The position numbers and the translations under genes are program-made. A DNA stretch of 64,000 bases from positions 384,001 to 448,000 of the forward strand of contig CAWGMQ010000007.1 in the NCBI GenBank assembly GCA_963823665.1, written 5' to 3'. The notes under the pieces were generated by a model, which searched no databases, was not told the origin of the DNA, and was given only the letters and a program-made list of their open reading frames with translations. Source of the DNA: an uncultured Planctomycetota bacterium (GTDB taxonomy: Bacteria > Planctomycetota > Planctomycetia > Isosphaerales > Isosphaeraceae). Position 1 is the stretch's first letter. The number at the start of each line of letters is the position of its first letter. Positions 1,946-53,000 of this stretch are shown here, piece after piece.

Positions 1946-1961
1946 TCCATTACTGCCAGCG

Positions 1962-18906: not shown

Positions 18907-18937
18907 AGAACCGTCGCCGAACCGAGAACCTGACACG
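18907..18937 (-). promoter_or_regulatory. Putative ECF promoter upstream of the kinase gene
   Basis: CGTGTCAGGTTCTC-N13-TTCT; second copy at 19589-19619 on +. Confidence 0.55.
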
Positions 18938-18943
18938 TCTCAC

Positions 18944-21286: not shown

Positions 21287-21410
21287 CCTAGGGCTGCGGT
21301 CGGGCCGACTAGCGGTGGCGGCATACGAGACGACGACGGGACGCTCGCCGTTCTTCACGTCGTCTCAGGCGCCGCCGTGGCGGCCTGTTTAATTCACAAG
21401 AGAATATATC

Positions 21411-29380: not shown

Positions 29381-29559
29381 TGAAGCGCGGCGGCGGCGAT
29401 CGCGGCGGCACGCTGGCGCTGGACCACGTGATCCGCGGCAACAGCGATTGTATCCAAAACGGTCTGTTTAACTCACGGCGGGCGAAGTTTTCCTGGCGGC
29501 AGTTGCCGACAGAGGATGCGTAAGTCTCGGTTTTCCCTCGAATTACCGGAGAATTCAGC

Positions 29560-32806: not shown

Positions 32807-32948
32807 GAGCGTGTCTGCGAATTGCGGTCGTGTGCGGAAGGGCTCTCACGCCGGTTCTCTCCCCGAGGGAGAGGGAGCGATAAGTCGTCGCGTCGGATTC
32901 CTCAACGGGTACAGGACCTTATCGCACGTTGAATTCGCAGAGACGCTC
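32807..32948. mobile_element. 142-bp MITE-like element with 17-bp terminal inverted repeats
   Basis: GAGCGTGTCTGCGAATT ... AATTCGCAGAGACGCTC (1 mismatch); flanks TAA / CAA; internal CTCTCCCCGAGGGGAGAG and GCGATAAG/CTTATCGC palindromes. Confidence 0.65.
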
Positions 32949-32981
32949 CAAGGGCGCCGAGTCGATCGGATCGCGCCACGA

Positions 32982-33041
32982 ATCGGAATGGGGCGTTGCT
33001 GCATATCGCTGCGGCGAGGGACTGTTACAATCGGGTTTCTT
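32982..33041 (+). promoter_or_regulatory. Duplicated 60-bp promoter-like segment, copy A (extended -10 TGTTACAAT)
   Basis: Near-identical to 34989-35048. Confidence 0.6.
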
Positions 33042-33077
33042 GAGTTCCGGCCCGGCGATCGATCAGGGGGTGCGGTG

Positions 33078-33586
33078 ATGCATTATCAGGTCGATGAAAA
33101 CTGGCTTCTTCTGCCAGAAGCAACGCGATTCGTCGAACTTGCCGGTGTGGCCACCGACTCGCGCGACCGCGTCTTTGTCTTCGCTCGCGGCGAAACCCCG
33201 ATCATGGTCTTCGACCGCGAGGGTCGGTTCCAGTTCTCCTGGGGTGAGGGCCTCTTGCGCGGCCCCACGGGATCACGATCGGACCGGATGATGCTGTCTA
33301 CATCACGGACGATCTCGACCACACGATCAGGAAGTTCACACCTGATGGGGACCTCTTGCTGACCTTCGGCAAGAGCGGCGTTGCGTCAGACACCGGGGCG
33401 ACCAGCCAGGATTTCCGCAGTATTCGCCGCGCCGGTGCACCGTTTCATTACCCCACGAACGTGGCCCTGGCGGCGGACGGGTCGCTCTATATCAGTGATG
33501 GATATGGAAACGTGCGCATGCATAAGTGTTCACACGATGGCCGGCATCTTTTGTCGTGGGGGGAGCCGGGCGCCCTACCGGGGCAG
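33078..33586 (+). pseudogene. Truncated duplicate of the NHL-repeat gene at 36153
   Basis: MHYQVDENWLLLPEA... matches 36153-36661 at DNA level; frameshift ~33256; homology stops abruptly after PGALPGQ. Confidence 0.85.
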
Positions 33587-33609
33587 CCGCGTGCGGGCCG
33601 CGTCACCTC

Positions 33610-33800
33610 AGACCCTCGTCAAGCAGGCCGGTTTGCAACGGCTCGTCCTCTATCGCCCGGCGACCCTGGCCGATCTCACGGCCCCCGACCCGCGGCCGAT
33701 CACCTGGGGTTGCTTCAGCCCCGATGAGGGCCGCCTGGCGGTGGCGGGCGCGAGCCACTTGATCCACGTTTGGGATCTGCGGCGGATTCGGAGGCAGTTG
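33610..33800 (+). pseudogene. Fragment resembling the last WD40 repeat of a planctomycete kinase
   Basis: LADLTAPDPRPITWGCFSPDEGRLAVAGASHLIHVWDLRRIRRQL. Confidence 0.55.
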
Positions 33801-33803
33801 ATC

Positions 33804-34697
33804 ATGCTTTCTCTTATGCAGACGCCGTTGATCCGCCTGGGCAACCTTTTTCCGCGTCATGAGGTTTACGCGAAGTGCGAGTTCCTTGCCCCGTCCGGTT
33901 GTTTCAAGATTCGCGGCGCGGCGCATCTGCTGGACCACCTGCGTCGTGAAGGGGACATGCGCCAACTGATCGTACCGTCGATGGGAAACACAGCGCTGGG
34001 AGCGGCGACGGGCGCACAGGCATTGGGCTTCAGCATGACCGGCGTCGTGCCGCACACCATCGCCCGCGCCAAGGACGAGAAGCTGAGGGCCCTGGGCGTC
34101 GAATTGATCAAGATTGCTGGTGGGGGCAGCGACCTGTTGCGCTATGCCACCGACCTCGCCAAGGAACGCGGGGGCTATTTCGTACATCCTCACCTGGATC
34201 CGCTCTGGACTGACGGCTACAGGTCCATCGCAGCCGAGGTCGTACTGGATCTCCCCGGTTGCCGGTCGCTCGTGTTTCCTTTGGGCGGCGGGGGCTTGCT
34301 CATGGGCCTGCTGGCGTACTTGCGGAACAACCCGGCGCAGCTCCGACTGTTCGGCTGCGAGCCGTACAACTACCCAAAGTACGCTTGCTTCGACCACGCC
34401 CGGTCTACCACGATCGCGGACGGGCTGATCCTGGAGACTGCCCATCCACAAGTGCAGCACGCGATCACGGATGGGGGGGTGGCGATCTCTCTGGTCCCGG
34501 AGGTAGACATCCGCACGGCGCTGAAAGACCTGTTCGACACGCAGGGGGTGGTGGTCGAACCGTCGAGCGCGATCGCTCTGGCCTTCGTCAGAGCCCGCGC
34601 CGAGCAGTTAGAAGAACCGATCTGCGTGATCCTCACAGGTGAAAATATCGCTCGCGAGGATCACCGTCGACTCATATCCGCGGCGCGCGAAGCTTGA
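33804..34697 (+). CDS. PLP-dependent fold-type II enzyme (threonine/serine dehydratase-like)
   Basis: QTPLIRL, KCEFLAPSGCFKIRGA (PLP Lys), SMGNTA, PLGGGGL, VVEPSSA, ILTGEN; GGAGG SD before ATG 33804. Confidence 0.85.
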   Translation: MLSLMQTPLIRLGNLFPRHEVYAKCEFLAPSGCFKIRGAAHLLDHLRREGDMRQLIVPSMGNTALGAATGAQALGFSMTGVVPHTIARAKDEKLRALGVELIKIAGGGSDLLRYATDLAKERGGYFVHPHLDPLWTDGYRSIAAEVVLDLPGCRSLVFPLGGGGLLMGLLAYLRNNPAQLRLFGCEPYNYPKYACFDHARSTTIADGLILETAHPQVQHAITDGGVAISLVPEVDIRTALKDLFDTQGVVVEPSSAIALAFVRARAEQLEEPICVILTGENIAREDHRRLISAAREA

Positions 34698-36152: not shown

Positions 36153-37117
36153 GTGCATTATCAAGTCGATGAAAACTGGCTTCTTCTGCCCGAGGCAGCG
36201 CGATTCGTCGAGGTCGCTGGCGTTGCCACTGACTCTCGCGACCGGGTTTATGTGTTTTGCCGAGGCAAAACACCGGTCCTGGTCTTCGACCGCGAGGGGC
36301 GCTTGCAGTTCTCCTGGGGTGAGGGTCTCTTTGCGCGGCCGCATGGAATCACGATCGGGCCGGATGATGCTGTCTACATCACGGATGATCTCGACCACAC
36401 GATCAGGAAGTTCACACCTGATGGGGACCTCTTGCTGACCTTCGGCACGAGCGGCGTTGCGTCCGACACCGGTGCGACCAGCCAGGATTTCCGCAGTATT
36501 TGCCGGTCCGGTGCACCGTTTCATTACCCCACGAACGTGGCGCTGGCGGCGGATGGGTCGTTGTATATCTCGGATGGATATGGAAACGCACGCGTGCATA
36601 AGTTCTCACCCGATGGCCGCCATCTTCTGTCGTGGGGTGAGCCGGGCGCCCTACCGGGGCAGTTTCACCTTCCGCACGGAATTGCCGTCGGGCCCGACGG
36701 CACAGTCGCTGTGGCTGACCGCGAGAACAGCCGCCTCCAGTTCTTTTCACCGGACGGGCGGTTCTTGCGAGAATGGACACAGATTGCGCGGCCGTGCCAG
36801 GTCGCGATCGATACGCAGGGGATCGTATACGTGGCGGAGCTGGGGTATCGGGCCGGGATGTGGCCCGGGACCGTGCCGCCGGAGCCGGGTGCCACCGGGG
36901 GACGCGTGAGCATCTTCGATTCCGGAGGCGAGCTTCTGGCTCGCTGGGGCGGGGGTTCTGATCCCTGCGCGCGGGTGATTTCTTTGCGCCGCACGATATT
37001 TGCCTCGATTCGCGTGGCGATCTTTATGTGGGCGAAGTGGTCTGGTCGGCGGGGGGCGACGTGGGCGCCGTGCCGGCGAGCTGCCATGCGCTTCAGAAAT
37101 TCACCAGGAAGGGTTAG
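36153..37117 (+). CDS. NHL-repeat protein (peptidyl-alpha-hydroxyglycine lyase-like); frameshift near 36970
   Basis: PHGITIGPDD, PTNVALAADGSLYISDGYGNARVHKF, PHGIAV..VADRENSRLQFF; shifted tail GDFFAPHDICLDSRGDLYVGEV...QKFTRKG*. Confidence 0.85.
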
Positions 37118-37173
37118 AGTCATCGTTTGCGGGATCGTGGCGCCGTGGGCGCGACCTGGAGACGCTCGCATTT

Positions 37174-37233
37174 GTAGGGTGGGTGAAACCCACCAGTAGA
37201 TGCCGGAATCTTGGTGGGTTTGGCCCACCCTAC
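37174..37233. repeat. Inverted pair of GTAG-type REP elements
   Basis: GTAGGGTGGGTGAAACCCACC-N18-GGTGGGTTTGGCCCACCCTAC. Confidence 0.75.
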
Positions 37234-38330: not shown

Positions 38331-39646
38331 CGAAGTCTGCGGCGATGGTGCCGGATCGCGACGAGATTCGGAGCTTGCGTGATCTTTCGGCTTACCAGTG
38401 GAAATCGGGTATTGCCGCGTGGCTGGGATGGCTGTTCGACGGCCTGGACATGCACCTGTATGTTCTTGTGGCTGCGCCGTTCGTCGCGGAACTGGTGGGT
38501 GTTACCGACACGCGGAATGAGAGCGTCGGCTGGTACAGCTCGTGGATCCAGGCCGCGTTCCTGGTCGGCTGGGCGCTTGGCGGCGGTTTCTTCGGGCGGA
38601 TCGGCGACCGCATCGGCCGCAGCCGCGCGCTTTGTTTGACCATACTGACGTATGCGCTTTTCACGGGACTGGCTTTCTTCGCGCAAACGTGGTGGCAATT
38701 GTTGATCGTGCGATTCCTGGCGGCGCTGGGCATCGGCGGCGAGTGGGCGGTGGGTGCCTCTTTGCTTTCGGAAACATGGCCGCGGCGGTGGCGGCCCTGG
38801 ATTGCCGCCGTGCTCCAGAGCGGAGTCAATCTCGGCGTGCTGCTGGCCTCGGTGGCGACGTTTGTGCTGGCTGGCACGAGTCCTCGCGCGGTGTTCCTGG
38901 TCGGCGTGCTGCCGGCGCTCTTGGTCTTGTGGATCCGGTGGGCGGTTCCCGAAACGGACGAATGGAGTGCGGCCAAGCGCGAGGCGCAGGACGATGCGCC
39001 GGGAATCGCCGATCTGTTCCGGGGCCGGGTGCGGCGAACGGCGATTCTGGTGATCCTTGTCTGCTCGGTCAGCTTGACTGCGCATTGGGCATTCCTGTTC
39101 TGGTACCAGCAGCACTTGAGGAACTTGCCGGATGTGATCGGCTTATCGGCGGCGCGGAAAAATGAGATTGCCAGCCTTGCCAATTTCCTGGTCATGGGGG
39201 CGGCGATCTTGGGGAATTTCATGGCCGCGGCGATGGCGCGAGTGATGGGATACCGGCGTGCGATCGCGATCCTGTGTCTGGCATACTTTCTTTCGATGCT
39301 ACTCACCTACTCGGCACCTCGAAGCTACCCGGTCTTGCTCGCGTGCATTCCGGTCATGGGAGCCAGTGGCGGCCTGTTTGCGCTCTTCACGATGTACCTG
39401 CCGCCGCTGTTTCCTGTGCTCTTGCGAACGACCGGCGCGGGGTTCTGCTACAACATCGGGCGCATTGCCGCGGCGGTGGGGACGATCGTGTTCGGGTTGT
39501 TCACGAAGGTGGGCGACTACCGGATCGCCTTGATTTGCGCGGGCACGCTGTTCCTGCCGGCGGCGATCATCGCCTGGCGGCTGCCCGAGCTCTCCGACCT
39601 AGATCTTTCGCCTGCTTCTCCACCGGTTCGGCCGGTTCACTCTTGA
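38327..39646 (+). CDS. MFS transporter
   Basis: GWLFDGLD, GRIGDRIGR, GIGGEW, RTTGAGFCYNIGR; multiple TM helices. Confidence 0.95.
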   Translation: MTKSAAMVPDRDEIRSLRDLSAYQWKSGIAAWLGWLFDGLDMHLYVLVAAPFVAELVGVTDTRNESVGWYSSWIQAAFLVGWALGGGFFGRIGDRIGRSRALCLTILTYALFTGLAFFAQTWWQLLIVRFLAALGIGGEWAVGASLLSETWPRRWRPWIAAVLQSGVNLGVLLASVATFVLAGTSPRAVFLVGVLPALLVLWIRWAVPETDEWSAAKREAQDDAPGIADLFRGRVRRTAILVILVCSVSLTAHWAFLFWYQQHLRNLPDVIGLSAARKNEIASLANFLVMGAAILGNFMAAAMARVMGYRRAIAILCLAYFLSMLLTYSAPRSYPVLLACIPVMGASGGLFALFTMYLPPLFPVLLRTTGAGFCYNIGRIAAAVGTIVFGLFTKVGDYRIALICAGTLFLPAAIIAWRLPELSDLDLSPASPPVRPVHS

Positions 39647-39672
39647 CGATTGTCCGATCGCCGTTTTACAAT
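39643..39672 (+). promoter_or_regulatory. Putative sigma-70 promoter for the paralogue array
   Basis: TTGACG-N18-TACAAT, ending 77 bp before ATG 39750. Confidence 0.55.
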
Positions 39673-39749
39673 TGTCGTCGATCGAGCATCCTGTGGGGGG
39701 CGGCTGGTAGCCGGGGGTGCTCGTGCTTGTTGGGGTTGGGAGTGGATTC

Positions 39750-41127
39750 ATGTCGCGCGGGTTTTGCGCATGTGCTTTGTTTGGCGTGCTGGCGGCACCG
39801 TGTGCCGGCGGGCAGACGGATGCGAAGCCTGAGTTGCTGATCTCGCTGACGGTCCGGCCGGTTGCTGCGCCAGAACCGGCGCTTGAGTACGTGCTGCTTC
39901 CCCAGCTCAGGGAGATGACCCCGGGGAACCCGATCCAGGGCTACTTGAAGTGTTACCTCGAGCAGTATCGGTTTGTCTTTGACGAGGAGGAATTCGGGCG
40001 GCGCCAGACGCATCTGACGATGCCGCTCGAGGAATTGCCGGCACCGGAAGCGGCAGAAGTCGACCCCCGGTCGCTGGCGCAGGTTGACACGGCGGCCCGG
40101 CTCGACAAACCTGACTGGCAGGTCCTTCTGAAGCTCAGAGCCGACGGCATCAAAACGATGCTTCCCGACCTGCAGATTATGCGAAATCTGGCCAGGGCGC
40201 TGCAGGCGCGGTTGCGGGCCGAGGTTGCCGAGGGCCGGGTCGACGACGCGATGCGAACGGCCAAGACCATGTTCGCCATGGCGCGGCACATGGGGGAGCA
40301 TCCCACCTTGATCGGCGGTCTGGTGGGATATGCAATCATCAATATGGCGTTCGGCCCGCTGGAAGCGCTGGTGGAGCGCCCCGAGTGCCCCAACCTTTTC
40401 TGGGCGCTCACGAATCTGCCGGATCCCTTGATCTCGATCAGGACGGGAATGGAAGGTGAGCGGCTGATGAACTGGGCGCTTTTCCGGGAGCTGGATCGAG
40501 CCGCTCCCATGAGTGCCGAGCAGATCGAGAAATTCGTCGGCCCGGTCGACGCGATGTTTGCTGAGGGCGACCGTCTCAATATCCGGGCTTTTCTCGCGGA
40601 GCGGACGAGCAACGAACAGAATCTGGCCGCGGCGCGAAAGCGTCTTGCTCTTGCGGGGCTGCAGGAGGCGGATGTCAAAGCGTTCGTTCCCGCTCAGGTG
40701 ATCCTGCTGGATGATGCACGTGAGTGCGATGCCCGATTTGACGAGATCGCGAAGATCGTGGGGTTCTCCGCCTGGCGATTCGAGGAAATGGCGGAAAAGT
40801 TTGCCACCCTCAAGAAAGAACGGGCGTTCTTTGCCGATGCGCTCATGCCTCACCTGCTTGGCGCGGCGCGCTCACGCGCGGATCGAGCAGCGAATCGGCC
40901 TGCTGCGGCATGTCGAGGCGCTGCGGATGTATGCGGCTGAGCACGGCGGTGCCTTCCCGGCGAAGCTATCCGATATTTCCGTGCCGCTGCCGGATGACCC
41001 GTTCACCGGCAAGCCTTTTCTTTACGAAGCAAGTGGTAAGACTGCGCACGTTCGCGGCAGGCCGCCGAAGGCGATGGAGAACGATCGGGCGTTCCGCGTG
41101 CACTATGAAATCACTCTGAAGAATTGA
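39750..41127 (+). CDS. Secreted hypothetical protein, array paralogue 1; frameshift near 40870
   Basis: Signal peptide; PEPALEYVLLP..PGNPIQGYLKC; tail EALRMYAAEHGG..DPFTGKPF lies in ORF 40711-41127. Confidence 0.85.
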
Positions 41128-41189
41128 CGAATCGGGTCGGCTGCTCAAACGAGCCGCTGGTCTCTTGTCCGCGAGGGGAGTGCTTTGCA

Positions 41190-42599
41190 ATGAATCGAGA
41201 TCGCCTGGTCCTTGCGGTGCTGGGCGCAATCGTCGCCGTCGCCTCGATCGCTCGACCATGCCCCGCACAGCAGACTGGTGCCAAGCCCGAGCTGCTGATC
41301 TCGCTTTCGGTCGTGCCGGCCGCGGCGCCGCAGCCGGCGCTCAAGTACTTGCTCATTCCCGAGCTCAGGGAGATGAATCCGGGCAACCCGATCCAGGGAT
41401 ACTTGAAATGTTACCTCGAGTCGTACCGGTTCGTCTTCGACGAGGAACAATTCGACCGCCGCCAGATTCTTCTCGCGATGCCGCTCGAGGAATTGCCGGC
41501 GCCTGAAGCGCGCGAATTCGGCCCATTCGCACTTGCCCAGGTCGACGCCGCGGCCCGGCTTGACAACCCCGACTGGCAAATCTTGCTCAAGCTGAGGGCC
41601 GATGGTTTCGAAACGTTGCTCCCCGATGTGCAGGCGATGCGCAGCCTGGGCCGGGCGCTGGCCGTCCGCTTTCGGTCCGAGATCGCCGGCGGGCGAATCG
41701 ACGACGCGATCCGGACCGCCAAGACGATGTTTGCGATGGCGCACCAACTGGGCGAGCATCCCACGTACATCGGCGATCTTGTGGGCATCGCGATCGCATC
41801 GATTGCGATCGTTCCGCTCGAAGAGATGATCCAGCATGCCGACTGCCCCAACCTCTACTGGGCGCTCACCAATCTTCCCGATCCTCTCGTTCCGATCAAG
41901 CGCGCGACGGAAGGTGAGCGGCTCTCGCTCTGTTGGTTCACCCGCGACCTCGACTCGAAGGGTCCTATGAGTGACGAGCAGATCAAGCGGTTCATCGCCC
42001 ACGTCGAGAAAATGGCTGGTAGCGATGCGGCGCTTTTGGCCAACGGTGGGGTTCGGGGCTATCTTGATGCCCACACCAAAGACGTCGCCAAGCTGGCCGC
42101 GGCCCGCAAGCGGCTTGTTGACCTGGGATTGCCGGAGGCACGTGTGAAGGCGTTTTCGCCCGATCAGATCATCCTGCTGGACGAGGAGCGCGAGCTCCGG
42201 GCGCGGTTCGATGACATTGCCAAGCTCATGGGTTTCCCGCTCCGGCAGTTTCAGGAGCTCAACGAAAAGCTAAGCGGCGTCAAGAAAGAGCCGGCGCTCC
42301 TCGCCGACTCCTTCTTGCCCTCGATGACAGCCGTGCGCATGGCGGTTGCCCGGCTCGAGCAGCGGATAGCGCTGTTGCGGAACGTCGAGGCACTGCGGAT
42401 GTATGCGGCGGAGCACAAAGGTGCCTTCCCGGCCCAGCTATCAGACGTTTCGGTGCCTTTGCCCGGCGACCCGGTCACCGGCAAGCCCTTTGTGTATGAA
42501 TTGAGTGGCAAGACCGCGCACCTGCGCGGCACGCCGCCGAAGGGAATGGAAGAGAACCGCTTTTTCCGCGTGCATTATGAAATCACTTTGAAAAACTGA
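41190..42599 (+). CDS. Secreted hypothetical protein, array paralogue 2
   Basis: GGGGAG SD; signal peptide; same motifs. Confidence 0.9.
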   Translation: MNRDRLVLAVLGAIVAVASIARPCPAQQTGAKPELLISLSVVPAAAPQPALKYLLIPELREMNPGNPIQGYLKCYLESYRFVFDEEQFDRRQILLAMPLEELPAPEAREFGPFALAQVDAAARLDNPDWQILLKLRADGFETLLPDVQAMRSLGRALAVRFRSEIAGGRIDDAIRTAKTMFAMAHQLGEHPTYIGDLVGIAIASIAIVPLEEMIQHADCPNLYWALTNLPDPLVPIKRATEGERLSLCWFTRDLDSKGPMSDEQIKRFIAHVEKMAGSDAALLANGGVRGYLDAHTKDVAKLAAARKRLVDLGLPEARVKAFSPDQIILLDEERELRARFDDIAKLMGFPLRQFQELNEKLSGVKKEPALLADSFLPSMTAVRMAVARLEQRIALLRNVEALRMYAAEHKGAFPAQLSDVSVPLPGDPVTGKPFVYELSGKTAHLRGTPPKGMEENRFFRVHYEITLKN

Positions 42600-42661
42600 C
42601 GAACGAGATCGGCTGCCTGATTGTGTGGCGAGATTGTGGTCCGTGAAGGGAGTGCTTTCTG

Positions 42662-44070
42662 ATGAGGCGAGATAGGTTGGTCCTTGCGGTGCTGGGCGCG
42701 GTCGTTGCCATTGCTGTGAGCGCTCGATCATCCTTGGCCCAGCAGACCGCTGCCAAGCCCGAGCTCTTGGTCTCGCTATCGGTCGCGCCGGCGCCTGCGC
42801 CCAACCGGCGCTCAAGTATTTGCTCATTCCCGAGCTCAGGGAGATGAACCCCGGCAACCCGATTCAGGGATACTTCAAGTGTTATCTCGGGCAGTACCGG
42901 TTTGTGTTCGACGAGGAGAACTTCGACCGTCGCCAGATTCTTCTGGCGATGCCGCTCGAGGAATTGCCGGCGCCTGATGGGCCAGAGCTGGGCCGATCCG
43001 CGCTCGCTCAGGTCGACGCCGCGGCCCGGCTGGATAGCCCCGATTGGCAGATCTTGCTCAAACTGAGGGCCGATGGTTTCGGTACGTTGCTTCCCGATAT
43101 CCAGGCGATGCGAACCCTGGCCCGGGCGCTGGCCGGTCGGTATCGGGTAGAGGTCGCGAGCGGGCGAATTGACGACGCGATCCGAACCAACAAGACCATG
43201 TTTGCGATGGCACATCAATACGGCGTACACCCCATGCTGGTCGGCAATCTGGTGGGCATCGCGATCGCATCGATTGCGATCAATCCGCTTGAAGAACTGA
43301 TCCAGCAGTCCGATTGCCCGAACTTCTACTGGGCGCTCACCAATCTTCCCGATCCTCTGGTCCCGATCAAGCGCGGGATGGAAGGGGAGCGGCTCACGCT
43401 CTGGGGGTTTACCCGCGACCTTGACTCGACAAACCCGATGAGTGACGACCAGATCAAGAGGTTCATCGTCCACGTCGAGAAAAACTCTGGTAACGATGCG
43501 GCGCTCAATGCCAACGGCGGGGTTCGGGGCTACCTGGCTGCCCGCACCAAAGACGCCGCCAAGCTGGCCGCGGCCCGCAAGCGGCTTGTTGACCTGGGAT
43601 TGCCGGAGGCACGTGTGAAGGCGTTTCCTGCCGATCAGGTCATCCTGCTGGACGAGGAGCGCGAGCTCAGGGCGCGATTCGATGACATCGCCAAGATCAT
43701 GGGCTTCTCGGCCTGGCAGTTTCAGGCACTCTACGAAAAGTTGAGCAGCGGCAAGAAAGAGCCGGCGCTCCTGGCCGACTTATTCTTGCCCTCGCAGGTA
43801 GCCGTGCGGTGGGCGGTTGCCCGGCTCGAGCAGCGGATAGCGCTCTTGCGGAACGTCGAGGCGCTGCGGATGCACGCGGCCGAGCATAAAGGTGCCTTCC
43901 CGGCGCAGCTTGCGAACGTATCGGTCCCCTTGCCGGGCGATCCGGTCACCGGCAAGCCTTTTCTGTATGAGCTGCGCGGCAAAACCGCACACCTGCGCGG
44001 AACGCCGCCCAAGGGAATGGAAGAGAACAAGTTCTTTCGCGTGCATTATGAATTGACTCTGAAGGATTAA
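42662..44070 (+). CDS. Secreted hypothetical protein, array paralogue 3; frameshift near 42800
   Basis: ORFs 42662-42847 + 42820-44070; same motifs. Confidence 0.85.
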
Positions 44071-44131
44071 TAAGTCGATCGGCGGGACGAATGAGTCGAG
44101 GGTTTCTTGTCGGTGAGGGGAGCGTTCCGTA

Positions 44132-45541
44132 ATGTTGCGAGATAGGTTGGTCATTGCGGTGCTGGGCGCAATTGTCGCCGTCGCCTCGAGCGCTCGGCCG
44201 TCCTGGGCCCAGCAGACCGGTGCCAAGCCCGAGCTCTTGATTTCGCTTTCGATCACGCCTGCCGCATCGCCTCAGCCGGCGCTCAAGTATTTGCTGATTC
44301 CCGAGCTCAGGGAGATGTCGCCGGGGAATCCGATCCAGGGGTATCTGAAGTGTTACCTCGAGCAGTACCGGTTTGTGTTCGATGAGGAGAACTTCGACCG
44401 GCGGCAGGCGCTTCTGGCGATGCCGCTTGAGGAAATTCCGGCGCCTGAAGTACCCGAGCTGGGCCGGTTTGCACTGGCTCAGGTCGACACTGCGGCCCGA
44501 CTCGACAACCCCGATTGGCAGATTCTCCTCAAGCTGAGGGCCGATGGTTTCAGCACCTTGATTCCCGACGTGCAGGCGATGCGAACTCTGGCGCGGGCGC
44601 TGGCCGTGCGTTTTCGGTCCGAGATCGCGAGCGGGCGGATCGATGACGGGATCCGAACCGCCAAGACCATGTTTGCAATGGCACATCATCTTGGCGAGCA
44701 CCCGACGCTGATCGGCGGCTTGGTGGGCATCGCGATCGCATCGATTGCGATCACGCCGCTTGAAGAGATGATCCAGCAGCCGGAATGTCCGAACCTCTAC
44801 TGGGCGCTCACCAATCTTCCCGATCCGATCGTGCCGATCAAACGAGGGCTGGAAGGGGAGCGGCTCACGCTCTGGGCGTTTACCAGCGACCTGGACTCGA
44901 CGCGTCCCATGAGCGACGAGCAGATCAAGGCATTCATCAGACACGTCGAGAAAAATTCCGGCGACGATGTGGCGTTAAAGGCCGACGGCGGGCTCCGCGG
45001 CTATCTTGCTGCTCGCACGAAGGACGCGGGCAAGCTGGTGGCGGCCCGCAAGCGGCTCGTCGAGCAGGGATTACCGGAGGCGCGGGTGAAGACGTTTCCG
45101 CCGGACCAGATCATCCTCCTAGACGAAGAGCGCGAGCTACGGACGCGGTTTGATGACGTCACCAAGATCATGAGCTTCCCGGGCTGGCAGTTTCAGCCGC
45201 TCTACGAGAAGTTAACCAGCGGCAAGAAAGAGCGGATGCTCCTTGCCGACACGTTCATGCCGTCGCAGCAAGCCGTGGTGTGGGCAGTCACCCGGCTCGG
45301 CCAGCGGATCGCGCTTCTGCGGAACGTCGAGGCGCTCCGAATGTACGCGGCCGAGCACAAGGGTACGCTACCAGCGCAGCTTGCGGATGTCTCGGTTCCC
45401 TTGCCTGGCGATCCGGTCACGGGCAAGCCTTTTCTCTACGAGGTAAGCGGCAAGACTGCGCACGTGCGCGGCACGTCGCCGAAGGGAATGGAACAGAACA
45501 GGTTCTTTAATGTGCATTACGAAATTACTCTCAAAAATTGA
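44132..45541 (+). CDS. Secreted hypothetical protein, array paralogue 4
   Basis: 469-aa ORF; signal peptide; same motifs. Confidence 0.9.
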   Translation: MLRDRLVIAVLGAIVAVASSARPSWAQQTGAKPELLISLSITPAASPQPALKYLLIPELREMSPGNPIQGYLKCYLEQYRFVFDEENFDRRQALLAMPLEEIPAPEVPELGRFALAQVDTAARLDNPDWQILLKLRADGFSTLIPDVQAMRTLARALAVRFRSEIASGRIDDGIRTAKTMFAMAHHLGEHPTLIGGLVGIAIASIAITPLEEMIQQPECPNLYWALTNLPDPIVPIKRGLEGERLTLWAFTSDLDSTRPMSDEQIKAFIRHVEKNSGDDVALKADGGLRGYLAARTKDAGKLVAARKRLVEQGLPEARVKTFPPDQIILLDEERELRTRFDDVTKIMSFPGWQFQPLYEKLTSGKKERMLLADTFMPSQQAVVWAVTRLGQRIALLRNVEALRMYAAEHKGTLPAQLADVSVPLPGDPVTGKPFLYEVSGKTAHVRGTSPKGMEQNRFFNVHYEITLKN

Positions 45542-45601
45542 CGTTTTGGATCGGCGGCTCGAACGGGCGGCCGAAAGTTTGGCAGCGGGGGTTGCCTTCT
45601 C

Positions 45602-47011
45602 ATGATGCGTGGCATGTTCTTCCGGGCGACGATCGCGGCGATTCTCGCTCTGGCATCATCTTTTCGGTCATCCATGGCCCAGCAGGCGAGCGCTCCGCCG
45701 GAGACGCTGGTCCGCCTGTCTGTGGCCGCTGCGAAGGCGCCGGAGCCCGCCTTGCGGTACCAGCTTCTGCCCGAGCTCAAGGAAATAAGTCCGGGCAATC
45801 CGATCGAGGGATATCTGAAGTGTCATCTGGAGCAGTACCGGTTCGTGTTTGACGAGGAGGGCTTCGAGCGCCGCCAGAGTCTGCTTGCAAAGCCGCTCGA
45901 GGAGCCGGAGGAGCCCTTTACACGAGAGATTCCTCAGAGCGCTCTGGCACAGGCGGATCGGGCCGCCCGACTTGACAACCCCGACTGGCAGATTCTCTTG
46001 AAGATCAAGTCCGACGGCGTCAACACCCTGCTGCCGGACGTGCAGGCGATGCGTGGCGTCGCGAGATCCCTGCAGGCGCGGTTTCGCACGGAGGTTACGC
46101 GTGGGCAGATCGACGATGCGCTCCGGACGGCGAAGACGATGTTTGCCATGGCTCGTCACATGGGCGAGCACCCGACGTTGATCGGCGACCTGGTCGCGAT
46201 TGCGATTGCAAACATGGCCATGACTCCGCTCGAAGAGCTGCTCGAGCAGCCCCGTTGCCCGAACCTTTTCTGGGCGCTCACAGACTTGCCCGAGCCACTG
46301 ATCTCGCTCAGGACGGGAATTGATGGGGAACGGCTCATCCTCTGGACGCTTTTCCGAGAGCTCAATTCGACTTCGCCGATGAGTGCCGAGCAGATCAAGC
46401 ATTTCATCGATCCGCTCGACGCGGCGATCAGGCAAGTGGCCGGGCCCGGCAACCGGCTGCGAGACCACTTTGCGTCGCTTGCGAAGGACCCTGAGAAAGT
46501 GCGAGCGGCTCGCAAGCGGCTCGTCGCTGGGGGGCTTCTCGAGCCGAGCGTGAGTGCGTTTCCGGTGGAACAAGTGCTCTTACTCGACGAGGCACGCGAG
46601 TGCCAGGCACGATTCGACGAGATCGTCAAGATCATGAAGTTCCCGGCCTGGCAATTTGAGGCTCTGTTCAAGAATTTGAACGCCGGCAAAGGCGCGCAAT
46701 CGATTTTCGCGAAGGAACTCTTCGGACTGGTATCTCTGGTGAACGCCCGCCGCTCGGTGGCCCGGCTCGACCAGCGGATCGCCTTGCTGAGGCACGTGGA
46801 GGCGGTGCGAATGTACGCAGCAGAGCATGGTGGCGCGCTGCCTGCGAAGCTTTCGGAGATTGCCGTGCCGTTGCCGGTTGACCCGTTCACGGGCAAGCCG
46901 TTTGGCTATGAGGTCGCCGGAGGGACTGTGCACCTTCGGGGTTCGCCACACGAAGCCGAACAGAACAACGCGAACTACCGGGTGCATTACGAAGTCACCA
47001 TCGGGCACTGA
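45602..47011 (+). CDS. Secreted hypothetical protein, array paralogue 5
   Basis: 469-aa ORF; signal peptide; same motifs. Confidence 0.9.
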   Translation: MMRGMFFRATIAAILALASSFRSSMAQQASAPPETLVRLSVAAAKAPEPALRYQLLPELKEISPGNPIEGYLKCHLEQYRFVFDEEGFERRQSLLAKPLEEPEEPFTREIPQSALAQADRAARLDNPDWQILLKIKSDGVNTLLPDVQAMRGVARSLQARFRTEVTRGQIDDALRTAKTMFAMARHMGEHPTLIGDLVAIAIANMAMTPLEELLEQPRCPNLFWALTDLPEPLISLRTGIDGERLILWTLFRELNSTSPMSAEQIKHFIDPLDAAIRQVAGPGNRLRDHFASLAKDPEKVRAARKRLVAGGLLEPSVSAFPVEQVLLLDEARECQARFDEIVKIMKFPAWQFEALFKNLNAGKGAQSIFAKELFGLVSLVNARRSVARLDQRIALLRHVEAVRMYAAEHGGALPAKLSEIAVPLPVDPFTGKPFGYEVAGGTVHLRGSPHEAEQNNANYRVHYEVTIGH

Positions 47012-47071
47012 AGACTGATCGAGGGGATCTTGAGGTCATTCGTCGATCGATCGCCGCGGGAGTCGCCTCTG

Positions 47072-48439
47072 ATGAAGCACATTTTGATCGCGGTTGCCGC
47101 CTTTGCCGTGCTTTCCGCTCGTTCCGCGGCGGACGAGACGCTCATTCAGTTGAGCGTCGAGCCCAAGGCGGCACCTGTGCCGGCGCTCAAGTATTTGCTT
47201 TTGCCCGAGCTCAAGGAGATGAATCCGGGCAACCCGATCCACGTGTATCTGAAGTGCGTGCTCGAGGTTCACCAGTCTCTGTTCGATAAAGAACAGTTTG
47301 AGCATCGTGCCAAGCTGCTGGCGATGCCGCTCGTCGCCCTGCCGGAGGCGGAAATCCGCCATTACGGACATCGGACGCTGGCACTGGCGGACAAGGCCGC
47401 GCGGCTCGACAGTCCGGACTGGCAGATCTTGTTGAAGCTCAGAGAGGACGGCATCAGCACGCTGCTGCCCGACGTGCAGGAGATGCGACCGCTCGCCGGG
47501 GCGCTTCAGGCGCGTTTTCGGAGCCAGGTGGCGATCGGCCGCTTTGACGACGCGATTGCGACGGCCAAGACCATGTTTGCGATGGCCAGGCACATGGACG
47601 AGCACCCGACGTTGATTGGCGGCCTGGTGGGAATCGCTATTGCCGGCCTTGCGATTGTCCCTGTTGAAGAAATGATCCAGCAGCCGGGGTGCCCGAACCT
47701 CTACTGGGCGCTGGCAAGCCTGCCGGCACCGCTCATCACCTGTGCGAAAGGGCGGGCAGGAGAGCGGCTCGTGGTCAGTACGGTTTTCAGGGAATTGAAG
47801 TCCGAAACGCCGATGAGCGAGCTGGAGCTGAAGAAATTCATCGACCCGCTCGACGGGCTGCTGGGCGACGGCAGCGCCGCGAACCGCGGCATGGCGACTC
47901 GTTGGATCGTTGAGCGGGCTAGTGCCCCGGTGAAGCTGGCCGCGGCCAAAGCGCGGTTGATCGAAAGGGGCATTCCCGAGTCGGTGCTCCGGTCCTTTCC
48001 AGCCCAGCAGGTCATCCTGCTGGATGACAAGCGCGAATGCGAGGTCCGGTTCGACGAAGTCACCAAGATCCAGATGTTCCCAGCGTGGCAGTTCGAGGCG
48101 CTGGCCGCGGCGGCCAGGCCCCACAAGGAGCCGTCGCTCTTCGCCGATGCGCTCTTGCCGGGCCAGGATCGAGTGCGTCGAATCCAGGCGAAGCTCGAGC
48201 AGCGAATCGCGCTGCTCGTGTGTGTGGAAGCACTTCGCCTGTATGCGGCCGAGCACGGCGGTGTTTTCCCTGCGAAGCTGTCGGATATATCGGTGCCGGT
48301 GCCTGTCGACCCGTTCACGGGCAAGGCGTTCGGCTACGAAACGACTGGCAAGAAGGCCCACTTGCGCGGCACTCCACCAGCCAGCGAAGCGAAGAGCGCC
48401 GAGTTCCGCTTCCATTATGAAATCATCTTGCGAGAATGA
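47072..48439 (+). CDS. Secreted hypothetical protein, array paralogue 6
   Basis: GGGAG SD; MKHILIAVAAFAVLSARSAA signal peptide; same motifs. Confidence 0.9.
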   Translation: MKHILIAVAAFAVLSARSAADETLIQLSVEPKAAPVPALKYLLLPELKEMNPGNPIHVYLKCVLEVHQSLFDKEQFEHRAKLLAMPLVALPEAEIRHYGHRTLALADKAARLDSPDWQILLKLREDGISTLLPDVQEMRPLAGALQARFRSQVAIGRFDDAIATAKTMFAMARHMDEHPTLIGGLVGIAIAGLAIVPVEEMIQQPGCPNLYWALASLPAPLITCAKGRAGERLVVSTVFRELKSETPMSELELKKFIDPLDGLLGDGSAANRGMATRWIVERASAPVKLAAAKARLIERGIPESVLRSFPAQQVILLDDKRECEVRFDEVTKIQMFPAWQFEALAAAARPHKEPSLFADALLPGQDRVRRIQAKLEQRIALLVCVEALRLYAAEHGGVFPAKLSDISVPVPVDPFTGKAFGYETTGKKAHLRGTPPASEAKSAEFRFHYEIILRE

Positions 48440-48503
48440 GAGTGACAGAAGAAATGAGAAGCTCAATCCCTATCTTGGTTTTTGACGCCGGGAGTTTTCT
48501 GCA

Positions 48504-49880
48504 ATGAAGCGACTGTTGCTGGCGGCCGTTGCGATCGCCGGTGTTTCGATCGATTGCTGCGCACAGGAGACGGAGGTCTCGTTCCGGGTGCACGCGATGC
48601 CGGCGCCTGAGCCCGCGCTCAAGTATCAGCTTTTGCCGCAGCTCGATGAGCTGAATCCCGGCAACGCGGCCCAGAACTATCTCAAGTGCTTCATGGAGCA
48701 ACACCCGTTCTTCTTCAGCAAGCAGGGAGTGGGGGAGCGCGAGCACTATCTCTCGATGACGCTTGCCGAGCTGGCGGGCAAGAAGCTGGGCACGTATGGC
48801 GGAGGCGCGCTGCGGCAAGCGGACTGGGCAGCCCGCATGGAGAGCCTGGACTGGCAGAGCCTGGGGAGTATCCAGGGCGGCGGGATGGAAGCACCGCCGG
48901 CGGAAGTCGGGCCGATGCAGGTTCTGGCCAAGGCGCTTCACGTTCGGTTTCGCATTGAAGTTGCCGAGGGCAGGTTCGACGACGGGGTTCGATCGGCGAA
49001 GACGATGTTCGCCCTGTCGCGCCATCTGGGTGAGCATCCGACCGAAGTTGCCAATCTCGTCGGGCTGTGGCTGGCTCATCTCACGCTTTCCACGATCGAG
49101 GAGATGGTGCAACAGCCGAAGTGTCCGAACCTGTACTGGGCGCTCACCGATCTACCAGCACCGCTCGTCGATCTGCGCAAAGGGGTGCACGGAGAACAAA
49201 CGATGGTCGCGGCGGAATTCCGGGCGATCCGCGCAGACTCGCCGATGACCGAGCAGGAGCTTGAAGCGCTCGTGAGCCGCCTCTCGGGCGTGATCAGCTT
49301 CTCGCGCGAGCAGACCGGCCAGGCGCCGCGCAGCGTCAGGGCGGCGCTTCGAACCAGCACGCGGGACGGCAAATCGGTTGATGCCGCGAGAGAGCGCTTG
49401 ATTCAGTCAGGCTGCAAGAAGGAGACGATCGCCAAATTCCCGCCGCTTCAGATCATCTTGCTGGACCAGAAGCATCGGTACGCGCTCGAGCGTGACGAGC
49501 GGCTCAAGCTGCTTTCGGTTCCGGTGTGGCAGACGCCGGGCTCGGGCTCCGCGGGCAAGCTTCAGGGAGGGGCACGATGGCCGCTGGCGGACCTCTTGCC
49601 GAATATCGACAAGCTGCGTGCGGAGGAAGCCGAGCTCGAGCGCCAGCTCGCCTTGCTGCGGTGGGTCGAGGCGCTGCGCATGTACGCAGGCGGACATGAC
49701 GGTAAGCTGCCGGCCAGTCGCGACGAGATTGCCGTGCCGCTGCCGCTGGACCCGGTCACCGGGAAAGCGTTTGCGTATTCCCTCGACGGGACGACGGGTC
49801 ACATTCGCGGTGAATCGCCTGCGGGACGCGGAACGAGCTCGAGCGCGGGTGTTTACTACGGCGTCACGGTCGGGAAGTGA
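48504..49880 (+). CDS. Secreted hypothetical protein, array paralogue 7 (most divergent)
   Basis: 458-aa ORF; PEPALKYQLLP..PGNAAQNYLKC, CPNLYWAL, EALRMYA..DPVTGKAF. Confidence 0.9.
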   Translation: MKRLLLAAVAIAGVSIDCCAQETEVSFRVHAMPAPEPALKYQLLPQLDELNPGNAAQNYLKCFMEQHPFFFSKQGVGEREHYLSMTLAELAGKKLGTYGGGALRQADWAARMESLDWQSLGSIQGGGMEAPPAEVGPMQVLAKALHVRFRIEVAEGRFDDGVRSAKTMFALSRHLGEHPTEVANLVGLWLAHLTLSTIEEMVQQPKCPNLYWALTDLPAPLVDLRKGVHGEQTMVAAEFRAIRADSPMTEQELEALVSRLSGVISFSREQTGQAPRSVRAALRTSTRDGKSVDAARERLIQSGCKKETIAKFPPLQIILLDQKHRYALERDERLKLLSVPVWQTPGSGSAGKLQGGARWPLADLLPNIDKLRAEEAELERQLALLRWVEALRMYAGGHDGKLPASRDEIAVPLPLDPVTGKAFAYSLDGTTGHIRGESPAGRGTSSSAGVYYGVTVGK

Positions 49881-49910
49881 TGAATGTGATCGAAGCGAAG
49901 ACAGAGGTGG

Positions 49911-51455
49911 ATGATGAGGGTAAGGAACGCGACGCTCGAGAAGATCGACCCTGCAGAGGCTTGGAAGCCGTGGCAGCCTTCGGCGGGGGATCCGTGGAAC
50001 CGGAAGTGGGCGGCTCAACTCTATCGGCGCGCGGCATTCGGGTATAGCCGCGAGGAGCTGATCGAAGCTGAGCGCCTCGGTCTGCAAGGGACGCTGGACT
50101 TGCTGTTCGAAGGCAGGCCCTATGCGACGGAATCGCTCGAGACGTTGATCGACGTGGGCCGGTTGGCGGCTCTGCGTGACGATGGGGGCAATCAGCTTCG
50201 GGGCTGGTGGCTGTACGCGATGCTCCAGGGCGGCCATCCGCTGCGCGAGAAGCTCACGCTCTTCTGGCACGATCATTTCGCGACCAGCCTGGTCAAGGTG
50301 CAGAACCCGGCGCTCATGTTTCGCCAGAACTGCCTGCTGCGCGAGCACGCGCTCGCGCGGTTTGGGCCGATGCTGCAAGCGATCAGCCGCGACGGCGCGA
50401 TGCTGGTGTGGCTGGATTCCAACAGCAACGTGAAGGGGAGGCCGAACGAGAACTACGCTCGCGAGCTGATGGAGCTTTTCAGCCTGGGGGTTGGCCATTA
50501 CACCGAGAAAGACGTGCGTGAGGCTGCGCGGGCCTTCACCGGCTGGCGGACGGACGGCGCCGAATTTGCGTTCAACGCCGCTTCTCACGATGGCGGGGCC
50601 AAGACGGTGCTGGGCCGGACGGGCAACTGGGATGGCGGCGACGTGGTGCGGATCGTGCTCGAGCAGCCCGCGGCGGCACGTTTCCTGGTGCGCAAGCTGT
50701 ACCGGTTCTTCGTGAGCGAGGCGGATCAAGTGCCCGAGGCACTGCTCGAGCCGCTGTGCGAATCGTTCCGCAAGAGCGATTACGATATTGCGGCGCTCTT
50801 GCGGACGATACTTTCCTCGCGACATTTTTATTCGAGCCATGCGTTTCGCCAGCGCGTGAAGGGGCCGGTGGAATTCGTGCTCGGTGCGGTGCAAGCGGTT
50901 TGCAGGCGATACGCGGAAGACGAACCCGATTATCGGCCACTGCCGCAGCAAATGCTGGTGGGCGAGCTGGCCGAACTAGGGCAAGCCCTTTTCGCACCGC
51001 CGAACGTCAAGGGGTGGCCCGGCGGGAAGGCCTGGCTGAACACGGGGACCCTGCTCGAACGCTCCAATTTCGCTCAAGTGCTGGCGATGGGCACGATCTG
51101 GGCGACCAGGTCGCCGCAGCCGAGGGTGGCACCGGAATCGTCGTACTTATTCACCCTGCGGCAAGTTGTCGGTGCGATCGCGCCGGGCCTCTTCCCGATC
51201 GATATCGCTGCAGAGCCCAGTCCGCCCCGCGCTTTCGATCCGGCGCGGATCCTGGAGGAAGAGCACGTGAGCGGGGCGGAAGACGTGGTGCGCGTGCTGC
51301 TGGATCTTTACCTGCCGGGCGGCGTCTCTTCGATTCTGCGATCGAAGCTGGTGGCGTTCGTGGGCGAAGGGAAGCCGGAAAAGCAAGACCTCGAGCGGCG
51401 GGTGCGCGAGTCCGTGCATGCGATTCTCTCGCTGGCGGAATATCAACTGTGCTGA
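49911..51455 (+). CDS. DUF1800 domain protein
   Basis: LYRRAAFG, LREKLTLFWHDHFATS, PNENYARELMELFSLG, YTEKDVREAARAFTGW, PPNVKGW, EYQLC. Confidence 0.95.
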   Translation: MMRVRNATLEKIDPAEAWKPWQPSAGDPWNRKWAAQLYRRAAFGYSREELIEAERLGLQGTLDLLFEGRPYATESLETLIDVGRLAALRDDGGNQLRGWWLYAMLQGGHPLREKLTLFWHDHFATSLVKVQNPALMFRQNCLLREHALARFGPMLQAISRDGAMLVWLDSNSNVKGRPNENYARELMELFSLGVGHYTEKDVREAARAFTGWRTDGAEFAFNAASHDGGAKTVLGRTGNWDGGDVVRIVLEQPAAARFLVRKLYRFFVSEADQVPEALLEPLCESFRKSDYDIAALLRTILSSRHFYSSHAFRQRVKGPVEFVLGAVQAVCRRYAEDEPDYRPLPQQMLVGELAELGQALFAPPNVKGWPGGKAWLNTGTLLERSNFAQVLAMGTIWATRSPQPRVAPESSYLFTLRQVVGAIAPGLFPIDIAAEPSPPRAFDPARILEEEHVSGAEDVVRVLLDLYLPGGVSSILRSKLVAFVGEGKPEKQDLERRVRESVHAILSLAEYQLC

Positions 51456-51488
51456 GCTTATCGACTTACCATATCCGGAGACTATCTC

Positions 51489-52730
51489 ATGTTCAATCGT
51501 CGTAGATTCTTGACGCGATCGCTGCAAGGCTCATCGCTTCTGGCCATGGGCACGGTGGTTCCGCAGTTCGTTTCGCGCACGGCGGAGGCGGCTGCGCCGG
51601 GCAAGGACAACATCCTGGTGGTGCTCGAGATGACCGGGGGCAACGACGGGCTGAACACGGTGATTCCCTATGCCGACGACCTGTATCACAAGGCCCGGCC
51701 GACGCTGCGGCAGACCAAGGACGTCGTGATCAGGCTGGACGATCACGTCGGGCTCAATTCGGCGATGCAGGGCATCCGGCCGATGTGGGAGAAGGGGCAG
51801 TTGGCGGTGGTGCAGGGGGTAGGTTACCCCAATCCGGAGCGCTCGCACTTCGAAGCGATGGACATCTGGCAGTCGGCCGACCCGAAGGGGGTCGTCACGA
51901 CCGGCTGGTTGGGGCGTGCGGCGTGTGAGATGAAGAACCTCTCGGGAGGGGTGCCGATCTTGCAGGTTGGCTCGAAGAAATTGCCGCTGGCGCTTTCGGG
52001 TGCGCCGGGCGGCGGGGCAGTCACGGTGTTTGATCAGAATTCATTTCGTCTCCAGCTTGGTGGAGGCAAAGCCGCGCAGCAGAAGGCGAGGCGCAAGCTG
52101 CTGGATGAGCTGGCGGCGGCGGGCGCGAGCAATGGGGATCAGGATCTCACCTCGTTCATCCAGCGGCGGCAAGTGCAAACGCTGACGGCCGTGGAGACGC
52201 TGCGCGAGCTGATGGCGGGGAAGAACGCCGTTGCGCGGCCGGGCGCGGGGCTTTCGCAGAAGCTCTTGCTGATCGCCGAGTTGATCGACCGCGGGTTCGG
52301 CACGCGCATTTTCTATGTCAGCCTCGAAGGTTTTGACACGCACGCCGCGCAGGCCCCCGCGCATGCCGGATTGCTCGGTGAGCTGGCAAGCTCGATCAAT
52401 GCGTTTTTCGAGACCCTCAAGAAGACCGGCAACGACAGCCGGGTGCGACTGATGACGTATTCGGAGTTCGGCCGGAGGGTGCAGGAGAACGGCAGCCGGG
52501 GCACGGACCATGGCGCGGGTTCTTGCCTGTTCCTGGCCGGGCCGTCGGTCAAGGCGGGCGTGGTGGGCAAGCACCCGAGCCTGGCCGATCTCGACGCCGA
52601 TGATCTCAAGTACCACACCGACTTCCGCCGTGTTTATGCGACACTGCTCGACGGCTGGCTGGGGTGCGACAGCAAGTCGGTGCTGGGGGGCAAGTGGGAG
52701 CATGTGAAGGAGCTGGAGGCGAGGGTGTGA
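51489..52730 (+). CDS. DUF1501 domain protein (Tat signal), DUF1800-associated type
   Basis: NRRRFL; GGNDGLNTVIPY, GVGYPNPERSHF, GFDTHA, YSEFGRRVQENGSRGTDHG, DFRRVYATLL. Confidence 0.95.
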   Translation: MFNRRRFLTRSLQGSSLLAMGTVVPQFVSRTAEAAAPGKDNILVVLEMTGGNDGLNTVIPYADDLYHKARPTLRQTKDVVIRLDDHVGLNSAMQGIRPMWEKGQLAVVQGVGYPNPERSHFEAMDIWQSADPKGVVTTGWLGRAACEMKNLSGGVPILQVGSKKLPLALSGAPGGGAVTVFDQNSFRLQLGGGKAAQQKARRKLLDELAAAGASNGDQDLTSFIQRRQVQTLTAVETLRELMAGKNAVARPGAGLSQKLLLIAELIDRGFGTRIFYVSLEGFDTHAAQAPAHAGLLGELASSINAFFETLKKTGNDSRVRLMTYSEFGRRVQENGSRGTDHGAGSCLFLAGPSVKAGVVGKHPSLADLDADDLKYHTDFRRVYATLLDGWLGCDSKSVLGGKWEHVKELEARV

Positions 52731-53000
52731 TTTTGTGCGTCAGGCAACGCGGCCGATCCGTAATCGGAGAGCATTGACACGTAAGGCTGCGTGCAGTAGC
52801 TTTATCTTATCGAGTTGCTCGTGATGGGCACATTCGAGGAATTTGTTATGGTGGCCCGGCCGTGCACGTGTGTACGGACGGGTTTTTTTTTGCACCCATC
52901 TTCTGTTGCGGTTGGGGGCCAGGAGTGTTTCTGCGGCGGATGGTTTTGGATTCGATGTCGCGGCGGGGGCATTCAGGGCTCATTTTGAAGGGGAAAGAGG

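Follow-up and report, generated by a model that had tools for sequence, protein, structure and literature searches.

A stretch of 64,000 nt (the window; contig CAWGMQ010000007.1, positions 384,001 to 448,000) from an uncultured soil planctomycete of the Isosphaeraceae, whose genome assembly (GCA_963823665.1) comprises 16.46 Mb in 12 contigs, carries an operon in which seven tandem paralogues encoding probably secreted proteins precede a DUF1800 gene and a DUF1501 gene. The pairing of DUF1800 with DUF1501 is common in bacteria; its function is not known, and its members are rarely named together in the literature searched. The locus yields a first predicted physical partner of DUF1800, the seventh paralogue, with a short interface of matching clade-specific residues on both sides. 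An earlier note, made from the sequence of this DNA alone, had described the layout correctly: the seven paralogues lie on the same strand (39750-49880) with intergenic gaps of 60-64 bp, the DUF1800 gene starts 30 bp after copy 7 and the DUF1501 gene 33 bp after DUF1800 (Table 1). Every shared motif listed in that note, both cysteines included, was found in 7/7 copies, which display 39-82% pairwise identity. Its count of seven genes of about 455-470 aa holds for the number of copies, but only five reading frames are intact in the assembly, with copies 1 and 3 frameshifted. The signal peptides, judged by eye, each have a basic n-region, a hydrophobic core and an A-x-A-like end.

Table 1. Features of the operon and its flanks, in window coordinates.
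Feature	Position	Strand	Remarks
Sigma70-type promoter TTGACG-18-TACAAT with overlapping operator-like box	39643..39676	+	
Copy 1, type A	39750..41127	+	Frameshift near 40861, 2 nt missing compared with L035
Copy 2, type A, 469 aa	41190..42599	+	Intact
Copy 3, type A	42662..44070	+	Frameshift near 42799, 1 nt missing; base seen in one short-read contig
Copy 4, type A, 469 aa	44132..45541	+	Modelled
Type A hypervariable segment, copy 4 residues 244-300	44861..45031	+	Aligns with the type B DUF1800-binding segment (predicted)
Pilin-like C-terminal head (predicted), copy 4 residues 376-469	45257..45538	+	Found in all copies
Copy 5, type A, 469 aa	45602..47011	+	Intact
Copy 6, type A, 455 aa	47072..48439	+	Intact
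Copy 7, type B, 458 aa	48504..49880	+	Predicted DUF1800-docking adaptor
B-specific helix-loop, mature B residues 238-260	49275..49343	+	Most of the predicted DUF1800 interface
DUF1800 (PF08811)	49911..51455	+	No visible signal peptide; Pfam E 2e-115
DUF1800 predicted contacts, residues 74-107	50130..50231	+	
DUF1800 predicted contacts, residues 333-347	50907..50951	+	Clade-specific insertion
DUF1501 (PF07394)	51489..52730	+	N-terminal RRR-F-L twin-arginine motif; Pfam E 8e-26
Terminator-like stem 3' of DUF1501	52860..52877	+	Weak; 17 such sites against 14.6 expected by chance

The array was shown to consist of six type A copies and one type B copy (copy 7). In a tree of 95 near-complete family proteins (quick search, with frameshifted pieces of fewer than about 340 model positions omitted), all copies adjacent to DUF1800 (19/19, copy 7 included) formed one clade with a Shimodaira-Hasegawa-like approximate likelihood ratio test (SH-aLRT) support of 100. 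The six A copies of the window clustered with copies from the related loci L035 and L049 (SH-aLRT 99), five window copies have one-to-one counterparts in L035, and the upstream copies expanded independently in each lineage (Gemmataceae and Isosphaeraceae). Gene neighbourhoods were compared across 58 related loci, mainly from these two families of Planctomycetota, drawn from the best 80 of 112 matches; they were found with close-clade search patterns in related genomes and the counts are not independent. One DUF1800-DUF1501 clade adjoins the family in 30/58 loci, an association that the earlier note had anticipated. There the family gene stands directly before a DUF1800 orthologue, and 11 of these loci also have an upstream extracytoplasmic function (ECF) sigma factor and a putative anti-sigma factor. 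In another 18/58 loci the ECF pair stands without DUF1800, and the remaining 10/58 have neither; contig ends truncate 3 and 5 of these loci, respectively. Copy number was at least two in 30/30 DUF1800-linked loci and one in 20/20 uncut unlinked loci. Every B-type region precedes DUF1800, except one ended by a contig break.

Copy 7 and DUF1800 were co-folded, with a separate alignment for each chain and three controls, and copy 7 was predicted to bind: the interaction prediction score from aligned errors (ipSAE) was 0.74 (runs 0.76, 0.74 and 0.71) compared to 0.00 for the best of the three controls. The ipSAE mark is reached by 116/157 solved complexes and 2/215 mismatched pairs, a calibration that is rough for chains with their own alignments. 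The runs agreed in at least 51% of contacts and the predicted local distance difference test (pLDDT) score of the partner was at least 83. Memory of a known complex by the model is unlikely because neither the family nor DUF1800 has a solved sequence relative in the PDB. The predicted interface places the B-specific helix-loop on DUF1800 residues 74-107 and 333-347. On the B side, agreement with the B consensus at the interface was 68% for 19 B proteins, compared to 19% for 42 A proteins and 17% for 15 proteins that stand alone beside an ECF gene. On the DUF1800 side, 18 orthologues matched at 76% and 15 other paralogues at 15% (82% compared to 44% over the whole domain), and the insertion 333-347 is missing from the other paralogues. 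The interface segments are, going by these alignments, clade-specific on both chains, which was established independently of the complex model. The co-folding supports binding of B to DUF1800, short of showing it. Since only B carries the interface segment, copy 7 is the predicted adaptor that docks on DUF1800, and none of the six A copies is expected to bind at that site. The earlier note had regarded all seven proteins as interchangeable subunits, each binding a DUF1800/DUF1501 core. All seven do share a fold and an operon, and one of them binds DUF1800 in the model, but an interface segment missing in six A copies, together with the standing of B as a separate single-copy clade, makes interchangeability highly improbable; copy 7 is a fixed subfamily with a predicted interface that copies 1-6 lack.

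The segment that is conserved in B is hypervariable in A, and three diagnostic positions also distinguish the two types. The ratio of nonsynonymous to synonymous substitution rates (dN/dS, Nei-Gojobori) between window copies was 0.19-0.41 over whole sequences, compared with 0.19-1.1 within residues 244-300, with dS of 0.4-1.4. The A copies were shown to be under purifying selection overall, with the greatest variation at the segment used by B. Copy number ranges from 2 to 7 among relatives and the minimal operon, A-B-DUF1800-DUF1501 in Gemmata algarum JC673 (L082), has one A, as would fit an expansion by birth and death, whether neutral or driven by dosage, in a very large genome where one A and one B suffice and the differences between copies confer no specificity. 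The two frameshifted copies are in keeping with this, and variable segments near a dN/dS of 1 fit relaxed constraint as well as diversification. Nevertheless, we consider such an expansion improbable, given purifying selection in all pairs at dS values that mark the copies as old and retained, the one-to-one counterparts in L035 and the independent expansions in two families, which occurred only in DUF1800-linked loci.

The frameshifts of copies 1 and 3 were located with the sister locus L035 as reference and are likely to be assembly indels because many DUF1800 genes of the same assembly are likewise split. The extra base at 42799 in copy 3 is present in one 151-nt short-read contig of another run, which has one other mismatch, and no contig bridging the break in copy 1 was found among low-depth short-read contigs. 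The two cysteines, which are nearly invariant in 106 close homologues, had been singled out in the earlier note. Among 116 diverse homologues C74 is Cys in 40/116 and C219 in 32/116, with mostly Ala or Ser instead; the two co-occur above chance (p 2e-5), but this tracks clade. An invariant pair as a family-defining functional or disulfide feature was rejected, since it is limited to the clade. The clade limit of the cysteines, the two frameshifts, the predicted pilin-like head and the likely ECF sigma/anti-sigma origin described below are all absent from the earlier note.

No characterised protein was matched by the family in Pfam, NCBIfam or PDB sequence searches. The Pfam and NCBIfam scan of the seven paralogues gave no match, and a library scan of 68 diverse members produced nothing beyond isolated weak matches (at most 3/68 for any model). 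A weak NCBIfam match (E 0.11) that would make copy 7 a lipoprotein was dismissed, the cysteine being missing in B orthologues. By profile the family comprises 1,890 clusters (50% identity) at E <= 1e-30 and 6,705 at E <= 0.001. An Atlas search returned only unnamed clusters of Planctomycetota and Verrucomicrobiota, the nearest cluster with a named family having T2SSG on 13% of its members. Among 151 genomes sampled across the phylum 4 were positive at E <= 1e-30, a figure that understates the range, scoring having been limited to 10 candidates in each genome. The AlphaFold2 model of copy 4 (pLDDT 88.6; predicted template modelling score, 0.83) has a helical body and a small sheet formed by an N-terminal strand (residues 35-41) and C-terminal strands. 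Foldseek returned nothing at E <= 0.001 for the whole model, and its best VIA match (Z 8.5), to designed helical repeats, was set aside as a common arrangement. Modelled alone, the C-terminal 94 residues (pLDDT 92.4) matched pilins: the top 23 of 48,161 chains were all type IV pilins or pseudopilins, the best being EpsG (4lw9; Z 7.9; root-mean-square deviation (rmsd) 2.4 with 81 residues aligned). Foldseek on the head had no match at E <= 0.001, with three pseudopilins ranked 5, 8 and 9. No prepilin (class III) leader or hydrophobic alpha1-N helix is present, the N-termini are Sec-type by inspection, and no N_methyl or T2SSG Pfam match was found in the 68 members. From these models the family is predicted to consist of Sec-type proteins that end in a pilin-like head; they are not pilins, as they have no prepilin leader. 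The predicted helix and three-strand head is held in common with type IV pilins and major pseudopilins of type II secretion systems (EpsG/GspG, PilA, PilE, PilV; Z 7.2-7.9, rmsd 2.4-3.4), whereas the family lacks their class III leader and membrane helix and instead has a Sec-type signal and a 350-residue helical body before the head.

With such a head the proteins could join the tip of a type IV pilus or pseudopilus as variable adhesins or cargo. Besides the structural matches and the T2SSG content of the nearest named Atlas cluster, a distant clade of the family (about 30% identity; L024-L034) is followed in 8/11 loci by a secreted protein that ends in DUF1559, and two database proteins are fusions of the family with that protein. 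The missing prepilin leader and hydrophobic N-terminal helix, an N-terminal strand that locks the head to the body in the model, and the failure to recognise any pilus assembly gene among 45 chosen neighbour proteins make a pilus-associated role distinctly improbable. Fused longer forms numbered 3 among 8000 scored candidates; in two fusions to the DUF1559-ending protein (P0271, P0272) both halves end in pilin-like domains. Distant family-like helical domains were also seen behind membrane anchors or multi-helix permease-like regions (P0273; L157:1741-7092; L158:3613-4701), which suggests a larger superfamily of extracytoplasmic domains.

An ECF gene and a putative anti-sigma gene lie directly upstream of the family gene in 29/58 loci. 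An ECF-type promoter precedes the ECF gene in 25/25 close loci examined (GCGGAAT in 20, GTCGTCT in 22; spacer 14-15), and in 24/25 this promoter (GCGGAAT-N14-GTCGTCT) lies 8-11 nt ahead of the start, so placed that the ECF genes at L037-L090 are likely to be leaderless and autoregulated. The promoter also precedes the ECF-less Gemmataceae loci L050, L062, L083 and L085. The gene after the ECF gene (+1) encodes one hydrophobic segment near residue 40 in 25/25 loci and a conserved tail end, and is the putative anti-sigma gene. None of the Planctomycetes ECF groups in the available part of the PMC7826278 supplement fits these sigma factors, and other planctomycete studies might describe this ECF context. 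A contig labelled Alcaligenaceae (L066) also carries an ECF-anti-sigma-family triad that groups with planctomycete sequences, and is probably misassigned.

The rpoE-rseA-rseB type of operon encodes an ECF sigma factor, its anti-sigma factor and a periplasmic accessory protein, and RseB has a LolA-like fold. The relatives share with this type an autoregulated ECF gene, a one-helix +1 protein and an exported +2 protein, whereas the +2 protein of the array family is modelled as helical with a pilin-like head and the window has lost the ECF pair. No match to the RseB/MucB sequence family was found in Pfam, NCBIfam or the PDB. On this comparison the A copies could be RseB-like co-sensors that bind the periplasmic tail of the one-helix anti-sigma factor and so govern the ECF factor, with the six window copies broadening the range of signals in trans, through an ECF pair located elsewhere, and B-DUF1800-DUF1501 as a separate regulated output. 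The ECF/putative anti-sigma/family arrangement is the commonest and probably the oldest among the close loci, the putative anti-sigma factor has a single hydrophobic segment and a conserved tail end, and an ECF gene was confirmed in all 6 distant-clade loci scanned. This genome also has a third, more distant ECF/putative anti-sigma/family-like triad, which lies on the contig of the window some 70 kb upstream (L156:2301-4413). We nevertheless judge the co-sensor role unlikely. The window combines six A copies with the lack of an ECF pair, and the nearest ECF protein in the genome, 58% identical, heads its own triad with a family gene; moreover, 19/30 DUF1800-linked arrays have no nearby ECF gene, expansion occurred only beside DUF1800 and never in ECF-only loci, and the predicted fold differs from that of RseB.

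The sigma70-type promoter described in the earlier note was found at 39643-39672. The TTGACG-18-TACAAT pattern alone was not above chance (4 sites compared to 2.5 +/- 1.6 in shuffles). It is overlapped by a box of TGAC-N4-GTC at the -35 element and ACA-NN-TGTC at the -10 element, which has a single match in the 16.46-Mb genome (reversed control, 0), is present in 6/41 related genomes and precedes a family gene in 17/58 loci, five times within an array, the pattern having been drawn from the same loci. Because its two palindromic halves overlap the -35 and -10 elements, the box suggests that a repressor acts on the window promoter. BlaI was rejected as this repressor, as the box was not seen before two blaI genes checked. 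In relatives the box also stands, by eye, ahead of efflux-adaptor-like genes, WD40/TolB-like genes and a small exported protein (L115, L119, L122-L126); the box-bearing genes may form a regulon under one repressor.

The genome has 16 DUF1800 loci, several of them frameshift-split. The 15 loci other than the array are preceded by ECF-sigma genes, mostly with CarboxypepD_reg repeats (8), by BlaI and/or BlaR1-M56 genes (3), by a CarboxypepD_reg gene (3) or by a secreted 608-aa protein (1). Among 11 DUF1800 loci in four other genomes, 4 follow this same conserved, Pfam-less secreted protein (590-610 aa), 4 an ECF fusion, and one each BlaI-BlaR1, a 1,763-aa protein and a prepilin-like gene. DUF1800-DUF1501 mostly follows a gene for a trans-envelope regulator or another exported protein. 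DUF1800 orthologues start without a hydrophobic leader and DUF1501 orthologues carry a twin-arginine motif, and it is from this combination that we infer export of DUF1800 as a hitchhiker with DUF1501. DUF1501 has invariant residues D53, S119-H120, D283-x-H285 and D340-H341 (29 sequences), motifs that suggest a metal site and that we take to resemble the ligands of the alkaline phosphatase superfamily. One sulfatase matched the DUF1501 model at E 0.00097, and hhalign to one sulfatase gave a probability of 0.3%. Judged by its motifs, DUF1501 is likely to be a metal-dependent enzyme.

We tentatively propose, with slightly less than even confidence, that the operon encodes a periplasmic envelope-response complex composed of an adaptor (B), the docking protein DUF1800, the enzyme DUF1501 and variable recognition subunits (A). 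Copies A and B would be exported by Sec; copy 7 would dock on DUF1800, which would cross the membrane piggyback on DUF1501, a presumed substrate of the twin-arginine translocation (Tat) system and the presumed catalytic subunit of the complex. The variable segment of A would bind differing envelope or external ligands, and A would be coupled to the enzyme via B. The family may have originated as the third, periplasmic component of an operon of an ECF sigma factor and a one-helix anti-sigma factor, and the window lineage would have exchanged ECF control for a repressed sigma70 promoter.

Several observations weigh against this proposal. Only the structure of the operon connects the A copies with the enzyme, and 2/6 A copies are frameshifted in the assembly. 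A singletons occur in 15 uncut ECF loci without B or DUF1800, so A has a function needing neither of them. The neighbourhood counts carry the close-clade search bias and the non-independence of the genomes, and the distant clade lies near DUF1800 in 0/11 loci. The window itself lacks both the ECF pair and the ECF-type promoter, with no site scoring at least 2 of 26.9 within 450 nt upstream. Finally, DUF1501 gave no significant match to a solved enzyme in the PDB or to a sulfatase.

A broader view, which we consider possible though somewhat unlikely, is that DUF1800-DUF1501 is a widespread but so far unrecognised periplasmic enzyme platform in which DUF1800 serves as a docking subunit, its variable N-terminal face fits the exported partner encoded upstream and the A copies form an antibody-like repertoire. 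The upstream partners would be ECF-sigma or BlaR1 sensor fusions, the 590-aa protein or the array family. A co-sensor once tied to an ECF factor and carrying a domesticated pilin head would have split into a fixed adaptor B and a repertoire of A copies that vary at one binding patch and direct the enzyme to different envelope targets. BlaI-BlaR1-cargo operons follow a similar logic of sensor then cargo; some DUF1800-DUF1501 pairs (in this genome and in G022) follow BlaI and/or BlaR1-M56, whereas the array operon contains neither.

Known gene modules resemble the operon in part. In the Planctomycetes-Verrucomicrobia-Chlamydiae (PVC) superphylum, modules of unknown function recur as conserved clusters that pair a Tat-type DUF1501 with an exported partner, which varies (PMC3542564). 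The twin-arginine DUF1501 is in common, but the partner in the array is DUF1800 with a pilin-headed family and not the PSCyt/PSD1 cytochromes: no PSCyt1 or PSCyt2 match was found in it, and DUF1800 matched PSD1/DUF1553 only at E 0.024, below the cut-off. The available extracts of that article mention neither DUF1800 nor the array family for these modules. A DUF1800-DUF1501 pair with a twin-arginine DUF1501 lies beside bacterial chitin synthases, with which it is co-transferred (PMC5122149). It consists of the same two genes; the window is without a chitin synthase, and the extracts of that report name no physical partner of DUF1800. The portions of the literature on DUF1800, DUF1501, planctomycete ECF factors and pilins that were accessible contain nothing on the array family or operon. 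The operon is a real variant, not yet described, among the exported DUF1501 modules; its partner family is new and its predicted interface can be tested. The analysis defines an unnamed family (at least 1,890 clusters at 50% identity), a predicted pilin-like head outside a prepilin, and a type of ECF operon with its promoter, together with a testable general rule that an exported or sensor gene stands upstream of DUF1800-DUF1501. An experimental test is practical because Gemmata algarum JC673, a named strain, has the minimal operon.

Other features were noted in the window. A second tandem array (19868-31922) encodes large secreted repeat proteins with a shared N-terminal planctomycete-type leader motif, several of them frameshifted. 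At 32811-34697 and 36153-37199 lie, by eye, a broken near-duplicate of an NHL-repeat-like gene, which continues into a frame resembling a pyridoxal-phosphate (PLP) enzyme, and an intact-looking copy 3.3 kb downstream. An ECF-like sigma gene is followed by a large Ser/Thr-kinase-like gene at 15275-19525 on the minus strand, the usual planctomycete pairing (by eye). Also on the minus strand and by eye, a gene for a protein with cytochrome motifs precedes a DUF1501-like gene that is split (505-5344), apparently a classic PVC module.

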